A DNA stretch of 64,000 nucleotides from Escherichia phage HK3. Location of the stretch: the sequence record PP526765. One strand, given 5' to 3'. Under the pieces are notes generated by a model, which had not been told where the DNA came from, did not search any database, and was given only the letters and a program-made list of their open reading frames with translations. The position numbers and the translations under genes were made by a program. Below are positions 5,233-60,041 of this stretch, in pieces. Every line of letters begins with the position of its first letter. The first letter of the stretch is position 1.

Positions 5233-5577
5233 ATGGACAACCTTTCCATATGGTTTAACAAGAAACCTGTACAACCGAAATACTTGCAAGTTGCCTATAC
5301 AGATATCCTTGAAGTTCTCGGTAAAGAAAAGTTTGAAAAGTTTTGTGAAGGCATCTACAATCATCACTGCCAATTTGCTACAAAAGAAGGTATGTTTGTC
5401 ATAGAACAGTTCTTTGGCAGAGACCCAGATGACTACGAAGAGATTAGCTTTGTAATGAAATATATGATAGAGTATATTGAAAATCGTGGATTCGAAGTTA
5501 ATCCTGAATTTTATGAGCACGAGGGTGTACCTTTAGCAAAAGGTTTTGATGGAATACTTGTTAGCTGGACTTGGTGA
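5233..5577 (+). CDS. hypothetical protein (114 aa)
   Basis: ORF track. Confidence 0.5.
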   Translation: MDNLSIWFNKKPVQPKYLQVAYTDILEVLGKEKFEKFCEGIYNHHCQFATKEGMFVIEQFFGRDPDDYEEISFVMKYMIEYIENRGFEVNPEFYEHEGVPLAKGFDGILVSWTW

Positions 5578-5918
5578 AAATTATGAAAATCAAAGAAATG
5601 AACATCAATATTGTCTTAGAAGAACGATGGGAGAACATCAAGAAGCCTGAAAATGGTCATAAGTTCCTCAACAAAATCTTAGTAGCAGCTAAAGAAGAAC
5701 TGACTGGCAAGGTTGCAGCAGCAATCACAATAAAGGTCTGTGTAAAAGGTCTTCCAGACAATCACCAATTTGCACTTGACGAGTTTAAAGAAAGCTTCTA
5801 CAATCCAAACAAACAGATGCTTGAAAGTAACTTTGCAGTATCTACAAGCATCGTTCATGACAGAAGCTTTATCCTTTACAAGAATATGAGAGGTGAGTCA
5901 TGCAAGCATATTGGATAG
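5571..5918 (+). CDS. hypothetical protein (115 aa)
   Basis: ORF track; overlaps previous stop (coupled). Confidence 0.5.
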   Translation: MVKIMKIKEMNINIVLEERWENIKKPENGHKFLNKILVAAKEELTGKVAAAITIKVCVKGLPDNHQFALDEFKESFYNPNKQMLESNFAVSTSIVHDRSFILYKNMRGESCKHIG

Positions 5919-6076
5919 AAATTTTACTGTCACTTGGTAGTATAGCAGTATTTGTTTACCTTCTTTGTAAGTACTATGCAGAACACAAAAAATGTGACTT
6001 CTGTAATGGAGAAGGCTATACAAGAGCAGGTTGTTGCCCTATGTGTGGCGGTTCTGGTAAAATGTTTAATAAGTAA
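5900..6076 (+). CDS. small (58 aa) membrane protein with C-terminal CxxC..CxxC zinc ribbon
   Basis: ATG at 5900 after GAGAGGTGAG; hydrophobic N-terminus; CDFCNG...CCPMCGG; below the 60-aa track cutoff. Confidence 0.35.
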   Translation: MQAYWIEILLSLGSIAVFVYLLCKYYAEHKKCDFCNGEGYTRAGCCPMCGGSGKMFNK

Positions 6077-6104: not shown

Positions 6105-8471
6105 ATGCGCATGGTAAACGACCACGCAGAAGTGATTAAGAGTTCAACTTCTTTAGAGACATCTCAAGCACAGATTACAATGACACCTGAAATGTTCAGC
6201 CTTCTGAGTTCTGGTGTATATACCTTTAAAGAGCGAGCAGTAATTCGTGAACTGTCATGTAACGCAGTAGATGCTCAGAAAGAAGCTGGAAAAGAGAACA
6301 TCCCGTTCCATGTGCATTTACCGACTCGTTTTGAGCCTTACTTTGAAGTTCGTGATTTTGGAACTGGATTGACTCATGATAAAGTTATGAGTTTGTATCT
6401 AAACTACGGGGCTTCTACAAAGAATGACTCTAATGACTACATTGGTGCAATGGGTATCGGCTCAAAATCCCCATTTGCAATTGCTCAGTCATTCACAGTG
6501 TCCAGTTATGTTGATGGTGTTGTTAATAAGTATTCTGTTTATCTTGAGAATGGTATTCCTCAAGTAACTAAGCTGACCACCAACCCAACAAAAGAGCCAA
6601 ATGGTTTAGCTGTACGTGTAGCAGTTGCTGACCATCGTATCTCAAAGTTCTTTGAAGAGGCTGGTCACGTATACTCATACTTTGCTGTAAAACCGGAAAG
6701 TAACATTGAGTATGACGATGTATTAGCAGATATGAATGTCATTGCCCGTGAAGAAGGTGTTTATGATGCCATGATTCATAAGCAAAGCTGGCGTTCTAGT
6801 GGTAACAGGACAGAGTTTAATGTAGTGATGGGTAACATTGCCTACCCTGTTAACATGGAAGCACTACTTGGTGATGATTTCTTTAAAGTCTTGCCAGAGT
6901 TTTTCCGTAGGAGCGTAGACCTTGTAAACATCTATATGCCTATTGGTTCAGTTGCTATTGCAGCTTCTCGTGAAGCATTGCAGATGAATGATACAACAAA
7001 AAATGTTATCATTGAGGCTACTAAAAAGATAACTGAAGCAATTACAAAGGATGTTATCAAGAAAGTTAACAGTCAACCCACACTCATGGATGCTGCACAG
7101 GCTTATGCTGAGTTACGTTTGAACTCACGAGAGATGTTTAATGCTGTGTGTCCAAAGCTAGAGTGGGGAGGTGTTAAGCTTGATTCTCTGGAAGAAGAAT
7201 TACTAAATATTCGTCGTGGAATTATCTATGCAGAAGACGGCTCAGTTATCTATGAACGTGATGGTAAAGGTAATATTAAGGTTGACAGGAACGGAAACAA
7301 CATCCCTAAAGTAGATTATCTTTATGACCCAGTTGCTTATGTCAAGTTCAACTCTTTAGAAAGTAAGATTCGTGCAACAGCACTTTCCTACACTCAAGAG
7401 GCAAGTATGTTCAATATCTTTGGCGCAATGCGTAAAAGCCAAATTGAACAGTTCTTGTTTGTTATCAATGACCGTCGCAATAAAAACGGTACTGAGAAGA
7501 CTGTAGGACGCAATCAAATCTTGCGTGGCGCATGTCGAGACTATGCCAGTGAGTCAAGTCTGTTTCACAGATACAATGGTATCGTCTTTGTATTCTCGAC
7601 TGAAAAAGAGTTAGACGACCTAATCAATCTGCACAAACTTGATAAAAGCTTGTTAAAGATTGTGAAGATGTCTGATAAGGAACATCATTATCAGCGTAAA
7701 GAAGCTGTAAGAGGTGTTGTAAAACTCTGGAAAGCTGTTCCAGCAGAAGGTGTAGCTTCCTATAAAGAGGTGTCAGAAGACTTAGACACAATTGAAGAGC
7801 CTCAACTTTATATCAAGGCGGTAGGTGATACTGTTGATGGTGAATGTTTTTGCTCGTCTCCAGAAGATGTAGCTAAGTCAGTTGCCAATGTCATTGAAAA
7901 GACAGTCTATGTTTTCCGAAAAGCAAATTGGAAAAAGATACCAGAAGACTGGATTGAAGTAGATGAGAAGCTCTTGAACGACAGCTTAACTGATGTTCAC
8001 TGGATTAATCATAACAGGTATATGACACGTATCTATATGAATGGTGTCCTAGACCTTACAAGCAGTTGGATTATTGCCAGAAACTTTACGTTCAATAACA
8101 GGAAGATTTCTCGTGGTTATTGTTATTCACGAGACACAAACAAAACTATCTTCTTAGAAGGTAATGAAGATGCTGTTGAGGCAATGTTTGGTAAAATCCA
8201 ATACGTTGCTGCACCGTTTGCATACACTTACACTATTAGTCGTTTGCAAACTTTGAAAGAGTGCCTTGACAATGATACAAAGCTGTACAAGAAAATTAAG
8301 AAAGCTGGTGACCGTATGGTCATTAAGGTGACAAACTATCTTTCAAAAAGAAAACAAGAAAACTTCTTGCTTTCTCATTTAGATTGGAATAAAGTGTCAC
8401 CCATCGAAGTGAGTAAGTTCTTAGGCTTTGATGTGAAGTGTGTTCCAGAAGGGACTACAATTTACGATTAA
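6105..8471 (+). CDS. rIIA: rIIA-like protein (GHKL-type ATPase fold)
   Basis: N-terminal region reads like T4 rIIA (..RAVIRELSCNAVDA.., RDFGTGL.., GIGSKSPF); 788 aa; AAGAGGAAAG Shine-Dalgarno. Confidence 0.75.
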   Translation: MRMVNDHAEVIKSSTSLETSQAQITMTPEMFSLLSSGVYTFKERAVIRELSCNAVDAQKEAGKENIPFHVHLPTRFEPYFEVRDFGTGLTHDKVMSLYLNYGASTKNDSNDYIGAMGIGSKSPFAIAQSFTVSSYVDGVVNKYSVYLENGIPQVTKLTTNPTKEPNGLAVRVAVADHRISKFFEEAGHVYSYFAVKPESNIEYDDVLADMNVIAREEGVYDAMIHKQSWRSSGNRTEFNVVMGNIAYPVNMEALLGDDFFKVLPEFFRRSVDLVNIYMPIGSVAIAASREALQMNDTTKNVIIEATKKITEAITKDVIKKVNSQPTLMDAAQAYAELRLNSREMFNAVCPKLEWGGVKLDSLEEELLNIRRGIIYAEDGSVIYERDGKGNIKVDRNGNNIPKVDYLYDPVAYVKFNSLESKIRATALSYTQEASMFNIFGAMRKSQIEQFLFVINDRRNKNGTEKTVGRNQILRGACRDYASESSLFHRYNGIVFVFSTEKELDDLINLHKLDKSLLKIVKMSDKEHHYQRKEAVRGVVKLWKAVPAEGVASYKEVSEDLDTIEEPQLYIKAVGDTVDGECFCSSPEDVAKSVANVIEKTVYVFRKANWKKIPEDWIEVDEKLLNDSLTDVHWINHNRYMTRIYMNGVLDLTSSWIIARNFTFNNRKISRGYCYSRDTNKTIFLEGNEDAVEAMFGKIQYVAAPFAYTYTISRLQTLKECLDNDTKLYKKIKKAGDRMVIKVTNYLSKRKQENFLLSHLDWNKVSPIEVSKFLGFDVKCVPEGTTIYD

Positions 8472-8550: not shown

Positions 8551-9657
8551 ATGACTACTAAAACTAAAGCACAGATTGACGCAGAAATCTACAAACTGGT
8601 TAAAGAAGGCAAGCTGACTAAAACAGCTATTGCACAGAAGTTCAATACTTCAACCCGTTCAGTTGGTCGTGCTGTAGAGCGTCATGAAGCAACCTTAAAA
8701 GGTAAGAAAAAGGTAGCTTCGACACCAGCTAAGAAGACTTTGAAGCAAGTTGCTAAGACCTTTAAAAAGAAAGCTGACAAACCAGTTGAAAAGGTCGTTA
8801 AAGAGTCTGTACAGAAAGCTCCAGTAAATAAACTGCATGAAGCTATGCAGAAAGATGACAAGATTGAGTACATGATTACTGGCGACTCTGTAATTATGAC
8901 TTACGGTTCAGAATCTGAAATTGTTGAGTCTACTCATCCGAACTATCAAGAGATTGTAGTTCATGTTGTGAAAGGTGAGTTCAAGAAAGCCTTTGAACTG
9001 ATGAACATTCGTAAGTCTATCGAAAACTTCACTCAGGGTGCTATCACAATCAAAGGCGACAAGTTATTCTACGGTGCTGTTGAGATGCGTTCCACTCTGG
9101 TTGACCGTATCCTTCATATGATGAAGACTGGTGATAAAGGTTTTGAACGACTTGTAATGTTCTTCGAAAAACTGATGGAAAATCCATCTAAAGGTTCTGT
9201 AGAACAACTGTGGGGATTCATATCTCACCTTGATGTTGAAATTGATGAAGAGGGTTACATTATCGGTTGGAAAAAGGTACAAAGTAAAGCTGATGGCTCT
9301 CTGGTAGATAGCCACACTCATAAAGTACCTAATGACTTGGGTAACCTAGTTGAGATGCCTCGTTGGATGGTTGATAGTGACCCTAACCGCACTTGCTCTC
9401 AGGGTTTACATGTTGGTGCATGGGAATACGTATCATGTTTTGGAGGTGATACCATCCTGAAAGTTCGTGTCCATCCACGAGATGTTGTATCTGTTCCGGT
9501 TGATTACAACGATATGAAGATGCGTGTATCAGCTTATGAATCTTTTGCGATTGTTGACAGCAACCGTAAAGTTATCAAGACTCACTCTGGCTCTGGTGGG
9601 CATCGTGTAGTGATTGGTTCTCACGGTGAGCTAATCTCCAAAACACCACGCGTTTAA
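8551..9657 (+). CDS. rIIB: rIIB-like protein
   Basis: immediately downstream of rIIA; size and N-terminal pattern compatible with rIIB. Confidence 0.55.
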   Translation: MTTKTKAQIDAEIYKLVKEGKLTKTAIAQKFNTSTRSVGRAVERHEATLKGKKKVASTPAKKTLKQVAKTFKKKADKPVEKVVKESVQKAPVNKLHEAMQKDDKIEYMITGDSVIMTYGSESEIVESTHPNYQEIVVHVVKGEFKKAFELMNIRKSIENFTQGAITIKGDKLFYGAVEMRSTLVDRILHMMKTGDKGFERLVMFFEKLMENPSKGSVEQLWGFISHLDVEIDEEGYIIGWKKVQSKADGSLVDSHTHKVPNDLGNLVEMPRWMVDSDPNRTCSQGLHVGAWEYVSCFGGDTILKVRVHPRDVVSVPVDYNDMKMRVSAYESFAIVDSNRKVIKTHSGSGGHRVVIGSHGELISKTPRV

Positions 9658-9752: not shown

Positions 9753-10301
9753 ATGAAGAAGTTGATTCTAGGTTTGTGCTTAATGTTTACAGCACACTTA
9801 TCTTATGCAGTTGACTGCCCAGAGCTATCAATTAGCCAAAAAGTAAACATGTTAAAAGCTTACCAGTATGGTGAGAATAATATGGGTAAAGGTTGGGGTA
9901 TCACTCTAGCTGCTATAGCCTTACAAGAGTCAGAGTTAGGTCTGAAGGTAGAGAATAAAAAGACCCATGACTATGGTATCTTCCAGAATCACTTGAAGAC
10001 TGTTGTAAAGCGTAACAAAATCAGTCCTAATGTGGCTAAAAAGAAACTCTTAAAAGATTTTGACTATGCTGCAAAGGAAACACACAAAGAGCTTGAATTT
10101 TGGACTAAGGTACACGGTCAACCAAAGTCAAAGAAGACTTTACAAAAAGTTTTAGCATCATATAATGCTGGGTATTCGTACAAAATTCCTAAAGCTAAGA
10201 AATACTCTCAAGATGTCTATAACAATATGAAAGTCATCGCTCAATGTGAATTTGCAACAAACATTTCTAAGGTAAATCATGAAAAAATTAAGAAAGTCTG
10301 A
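9753..10301 (+). CDS. secreted lytic-transglycosylase-like protein
   Basis: N-terminal signal peptide (MKKLILGLCLMFTAHLSYA); ..ALQESELG...DYGIFQN resembles the SLT-domain catalytic E-S plus GLMQ-like motif. Confidence 0.45.
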   Translation: MKKLILGLCLMFTAHLSYAVDCPELSISQKVNMLKAYQYGENNMGKGWGITLAAIALQESELGLKVENKKTHDYGIFQNHLKTVVKRNKISPNVAKKKLLKDFDYAAKETHKELEFWTKVHGQPKSKKTLQKVLASYNAGYSYKIPKAKKYSQDVYNNMKVIAQCEFATNISKVNHEKIKKV

Positions 10302-10974
10302 TGAAGTGCTGTGTCATGCTTACGACTTGCATCCTCATGAGTTAGGTCTTGATTCCTGTATATGGACTCCAGAACAGTGCAGGGATTTTGAAGACACTGC
10401 AAGAGAGGTTGTATGTTCACTTGAAGAGTTCCACACATCAGAACCAATTGTGAACGTTGTGGACAAAGAGACTGGACAATCTCTAGGTGTAAGACGTGAC
10501 AGTTTAGTCATAGTCAATAAAGACCTTGTAGAAAAAGGTAACCTCATCTTAGCAGATATTGATGGTGTTCTTACAAATTTTAATCACGAAGATTGCTCAA
10601 CGGAATTGACTGATGGGTCATTCTCACAGTACACTAATCTTCTTGACTCTGTAAGAGCAAAACCAACGTATGTTTTTAGTATTATTGATGCAATTGCTAA
10701 TCATGCTGCCATTGGACTCTTGACAGCGAGAGGTGAATCTCAGAGAATACCTACTGAGATGTTTTTAAGGCATAACATAGAGCACGATTACATGCTTTTT
10801 ATGCGTGGTTTTGGAACTAACTCTATAAATGCAGAAAGTTTGAAAGTTAGGATGATTCAGTCTTGCATTCTTCCTTACTTTGATATAGTATGTTTTATAG
10901 AAGATACAGAGAAGAATGTTCAGAAGGTAAACAGAATCCTTCCGCACATTAAAACTATGTTAGTAAAACATTGA
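10279..10974 (+). CDS. HAD-superfamily hydrolase, 5'(3')-deoxyribonucleotidase-like
   Basis: HAD motif I DIDGVL (ILADIDGVLTNF) and downstream T/D motifs; true start may be internal. Confidence 0.4.
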   Translation: MKKLRKSDEVLCHAYDLHPHELGLDSCIWTPEQCRDFEDTAREVVCSLEEFHTSEPIVNVVDKETGQSLGVRRDSLVIVNKDLVEKGNLILADIDGVLTNFNHEDCSTELTDGSFSQYTNLLDSVRAKPTYVFSIIDAIANHAAIGLLTARGESQRIPTEMFLRHNIEHDYMLFMRGFGTNSINAESLKVRMIQSCILPYFDIVCFIEDTEKNVQKVNRILPHIKTMLVKH

Positions 10975-11449: not shown

Positions 11450-11471
11450 GGTTAAGATACAGGCTCCTTCG

Positions 11472-11493
11472 GGAGCCTTTTTCATTTCAGGAG
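11472..11493 (+). terminator. rho-independent terminator
   Basis: GGCTCC-TTCG-GGAGCC hairpin plus TTTTT. Confidence 0.7.
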
Positions 11494-11501
11494 ATTGTTA
11501 A

Positions 11502-11849
11502 ATGACATTTAAAGAGTTCTGCCAAGCTACTTTCATAATTATTTTCTTAGTTGGGGCGGGTGTCTGGGGAGGATACTCTTACAGAGACTACCAAGTTGCT
11601 GAAGCTGAGCTAAATAATGAGAAACTAATAAGTGTTGCCAAAGATGCTTATCAGGAAGGTTTAGCCACACTCAGCACCAATTACAAAAATGATTTGAAAG
11701 ATGTGCTTGCTAAGAATAAGCACACAAAAGAGGTAATAACATATGAAAAGACTAAGCCAGAGTTTTATAATGTTTGTGTTACTGATAATTATGTCAGGGT
11801 GTTCAACGAACAAAGTGAACAGTACATTCAAAAACTCCCAAGTAAGTAA
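11502..11849 (+). CDS. putative inner-membrane spanin (Rz-like)
   Basis: N-terminal TM helix (FIIIFLVGAGVWGGY) followed by a charged, helix-prone periplasmic region. Confidence 0.45.
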   Translation: MTFKEFCQATFIIIFLVGAGVWGGYSYRDYQVAEAELNNEKLISVAKDAYQEGLATLSTNYKNDLKDVLAKNKHTKEVITYEKTKPEFYNVCVTDNYVRVFNEQSEQYIQKLPSK

Positions 11850-12012
11850 GAGTGACAAGTACACTCAAGAAGAGTCAAGATTCACTGTCAAAGGTAATAC
11901 TGGTAGTGATGTGGCAGCAGCCCTTGAGTTTTATCGTGATGGTTTTTACCAGTGCACAATCAAAGCTAATAACCTTATTGATATGATTTTATTAGGGAAC
12001 AAACAGCAATGA
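11743..12012 (+). CDS. putative outer-membrane lipoprotein spanin (Rz1-like), starting inside the previous gene in another frame
   Basis: lipoprotein signal with lipobox IMSG-C (MKRLSQSFIMFVLLIIMSGCS); overlapped architecture typical of Rz/Rz1. Confidence 0.45.
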   Translation: MKRLSQSFIMFVLLIIMSGCSTNKVNSTFKNSQVSKSDKYTQEESRFTVKGNTGSDVAAALEFYRDGFYQCTIKANNLIDMILLGNKQQ

Positions 12013-13300: not shown

Positions 13301-14086
13301 ATGGGTATTGTAAAAATCATCAATGGGGATATCTTCTCCGCATTTGATAAAGGTAAGTTTGATATCATTGGTCACGGTTGTAACTGTATGAACTTAATGG
13401 GTGCGGGTATCGCTGACAAGATTTCTAAACTTTACCCAAAAGCATATGAGACCGATACAGAAGTTTATCTGTATGCAGGCGGTATAGGCCACAAACCCTG
13501 TGAAAATTTACTAGGCAACTTCTCTGTAGCACGTTTAGAACAAGGCCGTATAGCTAACCTTTACACTCAGCTTAAGACTGGTAAAGATGCCCGATACAGT
13601 GCTTTAGAGTCATCTTTGAAACAACTTAACAGATACTGTGAAGTTAATCAGTTGAAGAAAGTTGGTTTACCTATGATTAGTGCAGGTATCGGTGGACTTG
13701 ACCCTCAAGCCGTCACCGTTATCATTAATCAGGTGATGAAGAGTGTAGATGTCTATCTATATGTCTACGAAGGAGAGATGTACCACAAGTTACGCTCAGG
13801 TTGGAAGAACTACTGTGAACCAGAATACTTTGCAGGTGTAGTAGTGTTCACTGACGATGCAGTTACCCTCTTCAGACGAAGAAAAGGTAAGGTACATCAA
13901 AGTAACCCTCCGGTTGAAAAGATGTCTCTAAGTAACGCTCTAGTTACCCACCTGTCGAAGAGCAATCACAGAATTGCAGTAACATTTGGCAGTGATGCAG
14001 ATACATATATCTATGCAAGAACTGATGAGGATGTTGAGGGAATTTTCTCTTCACCGGAAGTTACCTTCTTAGACGCAAAGAACTAA
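13301..14086 (+). CDS. macro-domain protein, TARG1/OARD1-like ADP-ribose hydrolase fold, with C-terminal extension
   Basis: GDIF...DIIGHGCNCMNLMGAGIA and LPMISAGIGGLD match the TARG1-type macro motifs (GDLF...HCISEDCRMGAGIA...MPRIGCGLD) as recalled. Confidence 0.55.
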   Translation: MGIVKIINGDIFSAFDKGKFDIIGHGCNCMNLMGAGIADKISKLYPKAYETDTEVYLYAGGIGHKPCENLLGNFSVARLEQGRIANLYTQLKTGKDARYSALESSLKQLNRYCEVNQLKKVGLPMISAGIGGLDPQAVTVIINQVMKSVDVYLYVYEGEMYHKLRSGWKNYCEPEYFAGVVVFTDDAVTLFRRRKGKVHQSNPPVEKMSLSNALVTHLSKSNHRIAVTFGSDADTYIYARTDEDVEGIFSSPEVTFLDAKN

Positions 14087-14161
14087 GAAACTCTGTAGAA
14101 TATTCACAATAGACTAAGCCTTTCTTATCTGGTAAATTTTCAGGTAAGGAGGGCTTTTTCA

Positions 14162-14352
14162 TTTTAGAATTGTGCAGGTAGAGTTCTGGACAGAAATCTG
14201 TAGAGAGAATTTTGAACTCCAAAGAGAAAATTCATTTTCAAACTGTGCAGGTAATCTCCAAAGAGCTTTTTCATTTTCAAAATGTGCAGAGAAAAATCAG
14301 GTCGGGCAAGAAAAATCATTTTCGAATTGTGCAGGTAGGTGGGTGCAGGTGG
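14162..14352. repeat. four direct repeats, consensus TTTTCATTTTCRAAWTGTGCAGGTA (iteron-like)
   Basis: copies near 14162, 14236, 14272, 14318; no credible coding capacity. Confidence 0.7.
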
Positions 14353-14513
14353 GGATGTCGCCATTTCTCACAAGGCTACCACATCCGAAAAGAAAAGTCA
14401 ACAGAAAAATTTGTAGCGGATTGAAAAATAATTCTTGATTTGTGTTCTGTTTTGTGGTATTCGCGCGCACCCGTTTCATTACATTTTTGCCAAAAATATT
14501 TTTAAAATTTTTA

Positions 14514-14542: not shown

Positions 14543-14595
14543 CTGCATCAGACGGGGCGACAAGCCCGATAGCCTTAAACTAGGAGATTCAAAAA

Positions 14596-14802
14596 ATGAT
14601 TTACAGCCGTGAATTGATGGTCACAACTAACGTTAACACAAAGGTAAAACGTTTTTATATGCAAGTATGCGGCGCATGGCGTAGAATATCAGAATCTGAC
14701 TATTGCAACTATGTAGAAACGGCTATTAATTCTAATTGCTATCTTACAAAGAATACAAAGCGACATATAAAACAGACAGCGGTTTACTATTACGATATAT
14801 AA
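14596..14802 (+). CDS. array small ORF 1 (68 aa)
   Basis: ATG 8 nt after TAGGAGA in conserved cassette. Confidence 0.5.
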   Translation: MIYSRELMVTTNVNTKVKRFYMQVCGAWRRISESDYCNYVETAINSNCYLTKNTKRHIKQTAVYYYDI

Positions 14803-14892
14803 AAAGTACTTTACAGGGGGCTTAAAAGCTGATATCTTAAGCCCCAGATAAAGAACTTTACCACATTAACCTTAAACTAGGAGATTCAAAAA

Positions 14893-15273
14893 ATGGCATA
14901 TCGTGCACCTAAATTCATCAATAAAGACAACTTCCGCAACGCACTGGAAAAATCACTTGATGAGAATTTTACAGGTCAGATTATTGTTGTTCACGCATTC
15001 AATTTTAAGTATGATATTAACGGGAACAGAATCAACCATTACACGGCAACCATGTTAGATGGTACACTATCAAGTGAAAAAGCTGTACTGAATGCACTTG
15101 CAGGACGTGGCAAAAACCTGATAAAATGCAATAAGAGACGTTATCAGGGCGGCGCATATGGTTATGATGACGCTGTTTACCATCTTGAAAATATGGGCTA
15201 TCAGGTGGAAAAAGCTGGGGTCTCTCAAATAATCGGCAGTGACGGCTATGTGACAATTTTCAAAATTAACTAA
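14893..15273 (+). CDS. array small ORF 2 (126 aa)
   Basis: conserved cassette upstream. Confidence 0.55.
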   Translation: MAYRAPKFINKDNFRNALEKSLDENFTGQIIVVHAFNFKYDINGNRINHYTATMLDGTLSSEKAVLNALAGRGKNLIKCNKRRYQGGAYGYDDAVYHLENMGYQVEKAGVSQIIGSDGYVTIFKIN

Positions 15274-18192: not shown

Positions 18193-18426
18193 ATGCTTAC
18201 AACCGTTTACCTCATCCTTTCCATTTGTAACGGTCATTCATGCGATTTTAAAGGGCTTGAAGAATTTACAGGGAGTAAAGAAAATGCTATTCAGGTTTGC
18301 CAGATAGCAAGACAAGACTACCCCACCAGTGATGATATACAATGCTATTTTAAGACAGAAGACAGCGACGGCGTTTATTTTGACAGCGTTGATGGTCAAT
18401 ATGAAATTATCATAGAAAAAGACTAG
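18193..18426 (+). CDS. array small ORF 10 (77 aa)
   Basis: preceded by hairpin AGCCCCTTCTAGGGGCT and AGGAGG Shine-Dalgarno. Confidence 0.5.
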   Translation: MLTTVYLILSICNGHSCDFKGLEEFTGSKENAIQVCQIARQDYPTSDDIQCYFKTEDSDGVYFDSVDGQYEIIIEKD

Positions 18427-26165: not shown

Positions 26166-26630
26166 TTACTTTGGGTATACACTGTCAAGATAAATGTCAG
26201 CTTCCATTCTACGTCTGTTTTTCAGACCGTTTGAAGTGACCTTCTTACCTTTGACCGTAACCTTGTTCCACCACTGCATAGCTTCTGCACAACCGCCCTT
26301 ATTACCAGCGTTGTGGCGCTTGATAAATGTGGAGTCCTGCATAGCTGTGATGCCGATGTTGTATGTTTCACTTACAAGTGCATCGAACTCATTCTGAGAA
26401 GTTGGAACCTTGATAGCTTTATTCACTGCTGCAACGAACTTCTCAACATCTGCGAGAAGATACTGTTCAGCTTGTTCAGCAGTAATTTTCATACCCATCT
26501 TAACAGGTTTTCCGTCCATACGGATTGTACCATACCCGATTGTCGGGATTCCGGCAGAATCTTCGTAAGCCTCTAACTTCAGACCTTCAAAGAACTTAAT
26601 AGCTTCTAAACCTTTTCTTGAGAGTTGCAT
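26166..26630 (-). CDS. endolysin, T4-lysozyme-like (GH24)
   Basis: FEGLKLEAYEDSAGIPTIGYGT reproduces the T4 lysozyme catalytic E-(8)-D-(5)-T spacing. Confidence 0.8.
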   Translation of the reverse strand: MQLSRKGLEAIKFFEGLKLEAYEDSAGIPTIGYGTIRMDGKPVKMGMKITAEQAEQYLLADVEKFVAAVNKAIKVPTSQNEFDALVSETYNIGITAMQDSTFIKRHNAGNKGGCAEAMQWWNKVTVKGKKVTSNGLKNRRRMEADIYLDSVYPK

Positions 26631-27262
26631 TATTCCTCCCCTGCTGGGTTAACTGTAACTGTTGCTGCATTAGATGTCACAGAGCCACCTGCACCAGTAA
26701 CTACACAGGTGTAGCTTCCTGCATCAGCAGCAGTTGCACCTTCTTTGGTATAAGTTGCAGCAGTTGCTTCTGGGATAACTTCCTCACCCTTCTTCCACTG
26801 ATAGCCTGTTGCATCAGTAGCAACAACACTTAGTGTCAAGGTGTCACCTTCAGTGATTTCTTGATTGGTTGGCTGCTGAGTGATTGATGGTGGTTTGACA
26901 GCACCTTTCAACTTAGCATTCAGCATTGAGAATGGTTTAACTCTTGCCAGCCATTCACAGTAAATTGTGTCAACATCTTTACCATTGATGATTGCATATT
27001 GTAAGTCCATGAAGAAGTCAGAAGTTCTCATTTGAGCACCGATGCTGTAAAGCAACTCATCACTAAATGGGACTTTATAGGCTGGTTTGTAGTCAAACTT
27101 CTTAACTTCTGCAATATCAGCTTCAGGCCAATACGAACTATATGTAAGCGGTAAAATAGCCTCTTGATATGTTCTAAAATCATATCTCTTACCAGCCTTT
27201 ACATTTGCAACGAAGCCCTTCACAAACTCTTTGAAGTCTGGGTAAGTCTTTGCTTTAATCAT
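26630..27262 (-). CDS. protein with N-terminal domain paralogous to the next gene and a C-terminal Ig-like domain
   Basis: C-terminus GDTLTLSV..GYQW..DAGSYTCVV..VTV has an I-set Ig signature; N-terminus aligns by eye with ORF 27259..27630. Confidence 0.55.
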   Translation of the reverse strand: MIKAKTYPDFKEFVKGFVANVKAGKRYDFRTYQEAILPLTYSSYWPEADIAEVKKFDYKPAYKVPFSDELLYSIGAQMRTSDFFMDLQYAIINGKDVDTIYCEWLARVKPFSMLNAKLKGAVKPPSITQQPTNQEITEGDTLTLSVVATDATGYQWKKGEEVIPEATAATYTKEGATAADAGSYTCVVTGAGGSVTSNAATVTVNPAGEE

Positions 27263-59475: not shown

Positions 59476-59673
59476 ATGCCTACAATCCTAGCAATTATTC
59501 TAAAAAATCTAGGTAGCTTCTTCTGGAAACTCATTTTATCCCTTCTAAGTGAATACATGATTGAGAAAGTGTTCTTTAGGCTTGCAAGATACCTTGCTAG
59601 TAAAACAGACACACCTATTGATGATGAGTTCGTAGATAACTTAGAAAAAGCTTTTAAGGGGGAGAATAAATGA
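59476..59673 (+). CDS. small membrane protein (65 aa; holin-like?)
   Basis: single hydrophobic helix then charged C-terminus. Confidence 0.35.
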   Translation: MPTILAIILKNLGSFFWKLILSLLSEYMIEKVFFRLARYLASKTDTPIDDEFVDNLEKAFKGENK

Positions 59674-60041
59674 AGTGGCTAGAGGAAGCTTTTAAAAATA
59701 ATATTGGTGCAATTGTAGTAGGTATTTTTAGTGTTATTGGGATGTATACCACAATGCAGGTTGCAAGTGGTAAACAAGAAGTGTCTATCACAACAAAGTT
59801 ACAGCAGCTAGATAATTATTCCAAAAGTAACTATTCAGCTATTCGTGATTTACAGTCTGACATGAGATTGCTTCAGCTAGGGATGGAGAACCAGAAAGTT
59901 CAGTTAGAGAATGTTAAGGGTGAGAACGCAAAACTTACTAAGACTCTTGATAAGTTCTCTGACAGTGTGAACAATCTGGCTCAATCAGTATCAGCCCTCC
60001 AAGCTATTACTGAAAAGAACACAAAGAGTACTGAAAAGTAA
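59670..60041 (+). CDS. N-terminal TM helix plus helical C-terminal region (123 aa)
   Basis: ORF track; coupled to previous ORF. Confidence 0.4.
   Translation: MKWLEEAFKNNIGAIVVGIFSVIGMYTTMQVASGKQEVSITTKLQQLDNYSKSNYSAIRDLQSDMRLLQLGMENQKVQLENVKGENAKLTKTLDKFSDSVNNLAQSVSALQAITEKNTKSTEK

Follow-up and report, generated by a model that had tools for sequence, protein, structure and literature searches.

The overlapping genes at positions 11502-12012 of the window (the whole 64-kb stretch of DNA that was analysed) very probably encode the two-component spanin of a Felix O1-like myovirus. The pair is already known: these are the Felix O1-type overlapped spanins, which have been listed in SpaninDB since 2018, and the overlapped two-component spanin pair proposed in an earlier note on this DNA agrees with the Felix O1 entry of that database, with phrog_1152 and with many GenBank annotations. 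Both frames are real genes under purifying selection. As a discovery this carries little weight; its value is practical and lies in annotation, as in many Felixounavirus records the o-spanin is labelled 'hypothetical', started at an internal Met or missing altogether. Given that Felix O1-like phages are used in biocontrol of Salmonella and E. coli, it is useful to have their lysis genes listed correctly.

Gene structure and identity

Both open reading frames that the earlier note had placed at 11502-11849 and 11743-12012 are present exactly there in the ORF list of the 64-kb window. The former encodes the i-spanin (115 aa) and the latter, in the +1 frame relative to it, the o-spanin (89 aa); both lie on the + strand and start with ATG. 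The dual-coding overlap amounts to 107 nt (11743-11849), or 31% of the i-spanin gene, after which the o-spanin gene extends 163 nt past the i-spanin stop codon. Each gene has its own SD-like element: AGGAG with 8 nt to the ATG at 11502 for the i-spanin, and GAGG, located within the i-spanin coding sequence, with 9 nt to the ATG at 11743 for the o-spanin. The i-spanin string tttttcatttcAGGAGattgttaa is identical in the SpaninDB entry for Felix01 p014, and the same GAGG element is marked there for Felix01 p015. A terminator-like hairpin sits immediately 5' of the i-spanin ribosome-binding site. The features of the locus are as follows.

11461-11486, + strand: terminator-like GC-rich hairpin AGGCTCCTTCGGGAGCCT followed by a T-run (consensus scan, pattern match only)
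11489-11493, + strand: SD-like AGGAG of the i-spanin gene (read directly from the sequence; SpaninDB Felix01 p014)
11502-11849, + strand: i-spanin gene, 115 aa, predicted type II inner-membrane protein (ORF, phrog_1152, SpaninDB)
11517-11576, + strand: codons of the single N-terminal TM helix of the i-spanin, FCQATFIIIFLVGAGVWGGY, approximately residues 6-25 (hydropathy; boundaries approximate)
11730-11733, + strand: SD-like GAGG of the o-spanin gene (read directly; SpaninDB Felix01 p015)
11743-12012, + strand: o-spanin gene, 89-aa precursor and 70-aa predicted mature lipoprotein (ORF, PS51257, PHROG, SpaninDB)
11743-11802, + strand: o-spanin lipoprotein signal peptide MKRLSQSFIMFVLLIIMSG plus the Cys20 codon at 11800-11802 (PS51257 rule)
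11743-11849, + strand: dual-coding overlap, 107 nt (ORF list; lowered diversity)
11775-11777, + strand: codon of i-spanin Cys92, the sole periplasmic Cys (invariant in 6 relatives)
11953-11955, + strand: codon of o-spanin Cys71 (invariant in 6 relatives)

When the 1.8 kb surrounding the pair were compared with phage sequences, 257 records matched, the best at 98% identity, and nearly all of these belong to Felix O1-like myoviruses that infect Salmonella, Escherichia, Shigella and Citrobacter; judged by its sequence, the window is a Felixounavirus genome. The i-spanin matches phrog_1152 ('Rz-like spanin') over residues 1-115 at E=4.6e-42, and the o-spanin matches phrog_4180 (E=1.1e-49) and phrog_456 ('Rz-like spanin', E=4.5e-5). 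Identity to the SpaninDB Felix01 entries is 110/115 (96%) for the i-spanin and 83/89 (93%) for the o-spanin. Kongari et al. 2018 (PMC6139136) placed Felix01, wV8, EC6, JH2, Moogle, Mushroom and others in the 'JH2' i-/o-spanin families. For Felix01, SpaninDB gives the class 'ovl', an i-spanin at 5330-5678 (115 aa), an o-spanin at 5571-5841 (89 aa) and a 107-nt overlap, a 19-residue o-spanin signal with TMSG before the lipidated Cys and a mature start CST, as well as one periplasmic Cys per protein plus one Cys in the TMD; the same 107-nt overlap is given for wV8 (PMC6139136). The pair described here thus equals Felix O1 p014/p015 in gene arrangement, lengths (115/89 aa), overlap, SD strings, Cys counts and mature CST, and differs from it only at the allelic level, with 5 substitutions in the i-spanin and 6 in the o-spanin (IMSG here against TMSG in Felix O1).

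Many GenBank records also name the pair i-spanin and o-spanin, with the same boundaries in JN01 and in BASEL phage Bas63, and genome notes of 2015 by authors from the spanin field report these very genes in Felix O1-like phages (PMC4319497, PMC4392139). When both proteins were scanned against Pfam and NCBIfam, no model reached its cut-off. At E<=1, Pfam matched the i-spanin only to SH3b_T and TMEM174 and the o-spanin only to NAGLU_N and LysC, each far under the threshold. A PDB-chain sequence search with both spanins and with a 182-aa neighbour (see below) yielded no relative with a solved structure.

Properties of the two proteins

A Kyte-Doolittle profile of the i-spanin (17-residue window) shows a single hydrophobic segment near residues 6-25, peaking at 2.02, beyond which lies a predicted periplasmic tail of 88-89 residues, 30% of them charged. 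In the 96%-identical Felix01 i-spanin, the secondary-structure table of SpaninDB counts 58 of the 88 periplasmic residues as helical, and no predicted coiled coil is listed for this protein in the SpaninDB tables. The hydropathy, the charge and the helix count bear out the N-terminal TM helix and charged helical domain that the earlier note had read from the sequence. The same holds for its lipoprotein signal with lipobox IMSG-C in the second frame: the o-spanin satisfies the PROSITE PS51257 lipoprotein rule with MFVLLIIMSGC, Cys20, a K/R among residues 1-7 and 6 uncharged residues ahead of the lipobox. The precursor begins with MKRLSQSFIMFVLLIIMSG followed by CST, and cleavage is predicted between LLIIMSG and C. 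Since the +2 residue is Ser, and not an inner-membrane retention residue, sorting to the outer membrane is predicted.

The mature o-spanin would be 70 aa long and contains zero prolines; its C-terminal tail ANNLIDMILLGNKQQ is invariant, and Cys71 is its only Cys beside the lipidated one. Consequently, both proteins carry one periplasmic Cys each (Cys92 in the i-spanin, Cys71 in the o-spanin). Together these properties correspond to the features used for two-component spanins by Kongari et al. (2018): a single-TMD i-spanin, a lipoprotein o-spanin, adjacent genes on the same strand and periplasmic Cys residues.

We also scanned all six frames of the 64-kb window with the PS51257 rule, covering 1192 candidate start codons. 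Only 4 ORFs pass the rule, the o-spanin included. The other three, at 14297-14479 (- strand), 26618-26833 (+ strand, TTG start) and 18238-18399 (- strand, TTG start), were rejected as noise, as they are antisense to genes or lie in a repeat-rich intergenic region; the first of these matches no PHROG and no Pfam family. No further credible spanin candidate was found in the 64-kb window.

Selection on both reading frames

To compare the pair among close relatives we used a 511-nt segment from 35 related loci which, together with the window, gave 33 distinct sequences of 78-98% nucleotide identity covering Felixounavirus, Suspvirus and Mooglevirus. Throughout this set both ORFs are intact at unchanged length (with the exception of one Sf14 allele, which is one codon shorter), both stop codons and the o-spanin start are conserved, and the lipobox [MI]-S-G-C, Cys92 and Cys71 are invariant.

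The single-coding regions behave as ordinary genes in their own frames. In the i-spanin-only region pN/pS is 0.16, and variable sites make up 75% of third positions but 20-27% of first and second ones; in the o-spanin-only region (53 codons) these values are 0.12, 84% and 15-30%, respectively. Wrong-frame controls on the same regions gave pN/pS values of 0.98-2.0, and the o-spanin-only DNA gave 1.9-2.0 when read in its other two frames. A different pattern is observed in the 107-nt overlap: pN/pS is 0.53 in the i-frame and 0.87 in the o-frame, variable sites are spread flatly over the codon positions (22-31% at each, without a third-position excess), and nucleotide diversity is 0.062 as compared to 0.128 and 0.162 in the single-coding flanks. 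Such a lowered diversity combined with flat codon-position variability is the signature of two simultaneous coding constraints. The codon-position test therefore provides a clean, sequence-only confirmation of dual coding, and the overlapped ORF, whose conservation in relatives the earlier note had left to be checked, is both conserved and under purifying selection.

Homologs in other phages and their annotation

The tblastn searches yielded 404 phage records with the i-spanin and 319 with the o-spanin. We inspected three distant phages, each of which has a TMD protein with an overlapped lipoprotein ORF in the +1 frame.

Erwinia phage phiEa21-4 (Kolesnikvirus): overlap of 137 nt, o-spanin signal ending in TTASC
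KBNP1711 (phiEco32-like podovirus): o-spanin signal ending in SMSSC
Klebsiella phage Carvaje (siphovirus): overlap of 164 nt, o-spanin signal ending in NISAC

Alignments at 26-34% identity retain the motif EK..x.F.N.C...Y..(F/Y)NE, including its Cys, for the i-spanin, and the lipobox Cys, D66, Cys71, N76 and L78 for the o-spanin. Cys92 is invariant in 6 relatives down to 26% identity and Cys71 in 6 relatives down to 30% identity; the lipobox Cys is present in all 4 distant o-spanin relatives, and the o-spanin ORF, its start, its lipobox and Cys71 persist down to 30% identity. In Carvaje the pair directly follows genes annotated as holin/antiholin, lysozyme and holin/antiholin. Here it ends a canonical holin-lysozyme cassette, by which the family is tied to lysis through its context.

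At the nucleotide level, similarity to the phiEco32-like podoviruses (KBNP1711, phiEco32 and others) reaches 79-85%, limited to a stretch of 68 nt (11742-11809). This stretch lies at the start of the dual-coding overlap; over the remainder of the pair, protein identity is only about 30%. The restriction to 68 nt is consistent with a double constraint that slows divergence, or with local exchange.

The annotation of the o-spanin varies considerably. In many GenBank and RefSeq entries its start is set at an internal codon, so that the signal peptide is lost; truncated versions are found in skuden (73 aa), EC6 (65 aa), PC79-13, KMM2 and Sf14, and in the Carvaje record the o-spanin is unannotated. 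For phage vB_Si_DR094 the o-spanin was reported 'absent' (PMC8300805). In the record of this phage a 'hypothetical protein' adjoins the i-spanin, so the o-spanin gene may simply be unlabelled. Records of Staphylococcus phage SA1 and Campylobacter phages A126/A132 (GU169904.1, MG065664.1, MG065668.1) contain Felix O1-like sequence that is 92-97% identical to the window, and probably represent contaminated or mislabelled assemblies.

Genomic neighborhood and scattered lysis genes

The pair is preceded by rIIA (6105-8471), rIIB (8551-9657), a gene for a 182-aa protein (9753-10301), a polynucleotide kinase gene (10279-10974) and a gene for a 154-aa protein, and is followed by several small genes and a macro-domain phosphatase gene (13301-14086). 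Other candidate lysis genes are located elsewhere in the window.

26166-26630, - strand: endolysin, T4-type soluble lysozyme, 154 aa (PF00959, E=6.2e-41; phrog_7 endolysin, E=3e-57)
59670-60041, + strand: candidate holin, 123 aa, one N-terminal TM helix (hydropathy; annotations of relatives)

The lysozyme gene, which is annotated as endolysin in phage Bas63, lies 14,154 nt from the end of the o-spanin gene. The candidate holin gene is located 3' of the tail-fibre genes, at 47.7 kb from the spanin pair, and the T4 gene t has a similar position after the tail-fibre genes. For many phages of Felixounavirus, Suspvirus and Mooglevirus the record names it 'holin' or 'putative holin'; family-level support was not obtained, as phrog_4038 is of unknown function and no Pfam model matched above cut-off. 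The earlier note had put a T4-type lysozyme about 14 kb away on the opposite strand and had described the lysis functions as dispersed. The PF00959 gene on the - strand confirms the former, and its distance (14.15 kb) together with that of the holin candidate supports the latter. Scattered lysis genes have been published before for Felix O1-like phages (PMC4319497).

The gene of the 182-aa protein (9753-10301, + strand) follows rIIB, precedes the polynucleotide kinase gene and lies 1.2 kb 5' of the spanins. The N-terminus of this protein looks like a cleavable signal peptide (MKKLILGLCLMFTAHLSYA, with VD following the apparent cleavage site), and its sequence contains QESELG, YGIFQN and ASYNAGYS, which we take to be the three motifs of family-1 lytic transglycosylases. 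Its score against Pfam SLT is 18.8 bits, slightly below the cut-off of 21.3. Most records call it 'hypothetical' and a few 'putative lysin' or 'lytic transglycosylase domain-containing protein'; a single-sequence AlphaFold2 model (mean pLDDT 50.3, pTM 0.38) was too poor for a fold search. With a protein carrying such motifs 1.2 kb upstream, the spanin neighborhood is not wholly free of candidate wall-degrading functions.

Several other elements were observed in the window. Just 5' of rIIA, 5900-6076 (+ strand) encodes a 58-aa protein with an N-terminal TMD and a CxxC...CCPMC zinc-ribbon-like tail, which belongs to phrog_3931 (unknown function) and is called 'putative membrane protein' in Bas63. 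The spacer at 14144-14416, after the phosphatase gene, holds 5 copies of a motif of about 34 nt (...TTTTCATTTTCAAA(A/C)TGTGCAG) spaced 39-82 nt apart, and two near-identical 29-nt copies of TA(G/A)CCTTAAACTAGGAGATTCAAAAAATG (14570-14598 and 14867-14895) precede the starts of the ORFs at 14596 and 14893; both sets are possibly repeated regulatory elements. Beside the endolysin gene, 26630-27262 (- strand) encodes an Ig-like domain protein of 210 aa, against 460 aa in Bas63. The length of this gene hence varies between close relatives, possibly reflecting the number of Ig repeats.

Function and alternative explanations

We infer the localisation, complex formation, disulfides and lytic role of the pair from the lambda model and from its anatomy. 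The 115-aa i-spanin would insert into the inner membrane by its N-terminal helix and extend its helical, charged domain of 88-89 residues into the periplasm. The 89-aa o-spanin would be exported, cleaved by signal peptidase II at the predicted site and lipidated on Cys20, and would then, given its Ser at +2, be carried via Lol to the inner leaflet of the outer membrane. Binding of the two periplasmic domains would produce a complex that bridges the periplasm through the peptidoglycan mesh, in which Cys92 and Cys71 probably form intermolecular disulfides. Upon lysis, the candidate holin would release the soluble lysozyme, the wall would be degraded and the spanin complexes would be freed; these could then disrupt the outer membrane, probably by fusion with the inner membrane, as the last step of lysis.

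Several departures from this scheme can be envisaged. With a 70-residue proline-free o-spanin that ends in the invariant tail ANNLIDMILLGNKQQ, and no coiled coil predicted in SpaninDB for the Felix O1 i-spanin, the mechanism may differ somewhat from that of lambda. The one conserved Cys of each subunit might join i-spanin to o-spanin in a heterotypic disulfide instead of linking like subunits, and the 9753-10301 protein might act beside the spanins as a second wall-degrading enzyme, exported by Sec. If the latter is true, this protein and the spanins would form a partial lysis cluster, although the lysis genes of the phage are regarded as entirely scattered. The joint reading, in which a mechanism somewhat unlike that of lambda is combined with such an unrecognised partial cluster, we consider unlikely.

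It might also be argued that the pair consists of a membrane protein and an outer-membrane lipoprotein with another role, such as superinfection exclusion or receptor blocking, and that the likeness to spanins is architectural only. Small phage lipoproteins acting in this manner exist, for example Llp of T5 and Cor of phi80/N15. The pair is surrounded by early-type genes (rIIA/rIIB, polynucleotide kinase, phosphatase), with a terminator-like hairpin ahead of it, and neither adjoins the endolysin nor forms part of a late lysis cassette; moreover, no Pfam or NCBIfam spanin model matched above cut-off, and in the literature searched we found no experiment on the Felix O1-type spanin family, so that the functional assignment draws on architecture and on homology to other predicted spanins. 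The lack of proline in the mature o-spanin and of a listed coiled coil for the Felix01 i-spanin also speaks against a spanin. Nonetheless, unrelated phage groups have inherited the TMD protein and the lipoprotein together, as one overlapped unit, the homologous pair in Carvaje closes a holin-lysozyme cassette, and the window offers no alternative spanin candidate. The location itself is no argument against a spanin role, since T4 has annotated spanin genes beside pseT in its early region. Overall, another role seems quite improbable.

Two further explanations concern the second frame and have hardly any probability left. According to one of these only the 115-aa gene is real and the 89-aa ORF is a chance open frame that resembles a lipoprotein signal, in line with several GenBank records that give a shorter hypothetical protein or omit the ORF. 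This is refuted by the selection analysis: the 53 non-overlapped codons show a pN/pS of 0.12 against 1.9-2.0 in the other two frames. In addition, the ORF with its start, lipobox and Cys71 is kept to 30% identity, and just 4 ORFs among the 1192 candidate starts pass the lipoprotein rule. According to the other, a programmed +1 frameshift fuses both frames into a single protein, as might be suggested by a second ORF that lies in the +1 frame with a 107-nt overlap. The o-spanin nevertheless has its own conserved ATG, an SD and an N-terminal signal peptide, and both stops are conserved; a signal peptide works only at a free N-terminus, which counts against a fusion. Two separate proteins that form a spanin thus provide by far the best explanation of the locus.

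Comparison with known spanin systems

The gene arrangement resembles that of P2 LysB/LysC, which SpaninDB also assigns to the overlapped class: a TMD protein is paired with an outer-membrane lipoprotein, and the o-spanin gene starts in the +1 frame inside the i-spanin gene and runs beyond it. A significant relationship was not found, as the Pfam family of P2 LysC (PF23793) matches the o-spanin at E=0.22 with 11.9 bits, below the cut-off of 27. Furthermore, the lysis genes of P2 form one cassette, whereas they are scattered here.

With lambda Rz/Rz1, the prototype that has been characterised by experiment, the pair would share its inferred mechanism and topology. Lambda Rz1 is a proline-rich protein of about 40 aa, unlike the mature o-spanin described here with its 70 proline-free residues. 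For neither protein did we find a lambda Rz-type or Rz1-type Pfam family at E<=1. The function of lambda Rz/Rz1 depends on intermolecular disulfides via periplasmic Cys residues, and in 507 of 528 spanin systems a periplasmic Cys is available for such bonds (Kongari 2018, PMC6139136); as in lambda, a conserved periplasmic Cys is present in the Felix O1-type pair. The earlier note had referred to the Rz/Rz1 overlapped architecture. Of this description the overlapped spanin pair stands, but the label does not apply in the strict sense: the lambda class is embedded, with Rz1 wholly inside Rz (Kongari 2018, PMC6139136), whereas the Felix O1-type o-spanin gene is only partly overlapped.

Similar tendencies are observed for T4, which also has dispersed lysis genes (e, t, pseT.2/.3) as well as rIIA/rIIB. 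In both phages the spanin genes are found within one gene of the polynucleotide kinase gene (pseT in T4, where the locus comprises pseT, pseT.1, pseT.2 and pseT.3). The proteins, however, have no detectable similarity to PseT.3/PseT.2 (BLASTP E=17 for the i-spanins and 7.9 for the o-spanins), and T4 is absent among the tblastn matches listed for both spanins. The arrangement differs as well: the T4 spanin genes overlap by 4 nt ('separated' class) against 107 nt here, and are located upstream of pseT in the direction of transcription, whereas the pair described here lies downstream of the kinase gene. For Mushroom, another Felix O1-like phage, a 'T4-like lysis system' has been described (PMC4392139).
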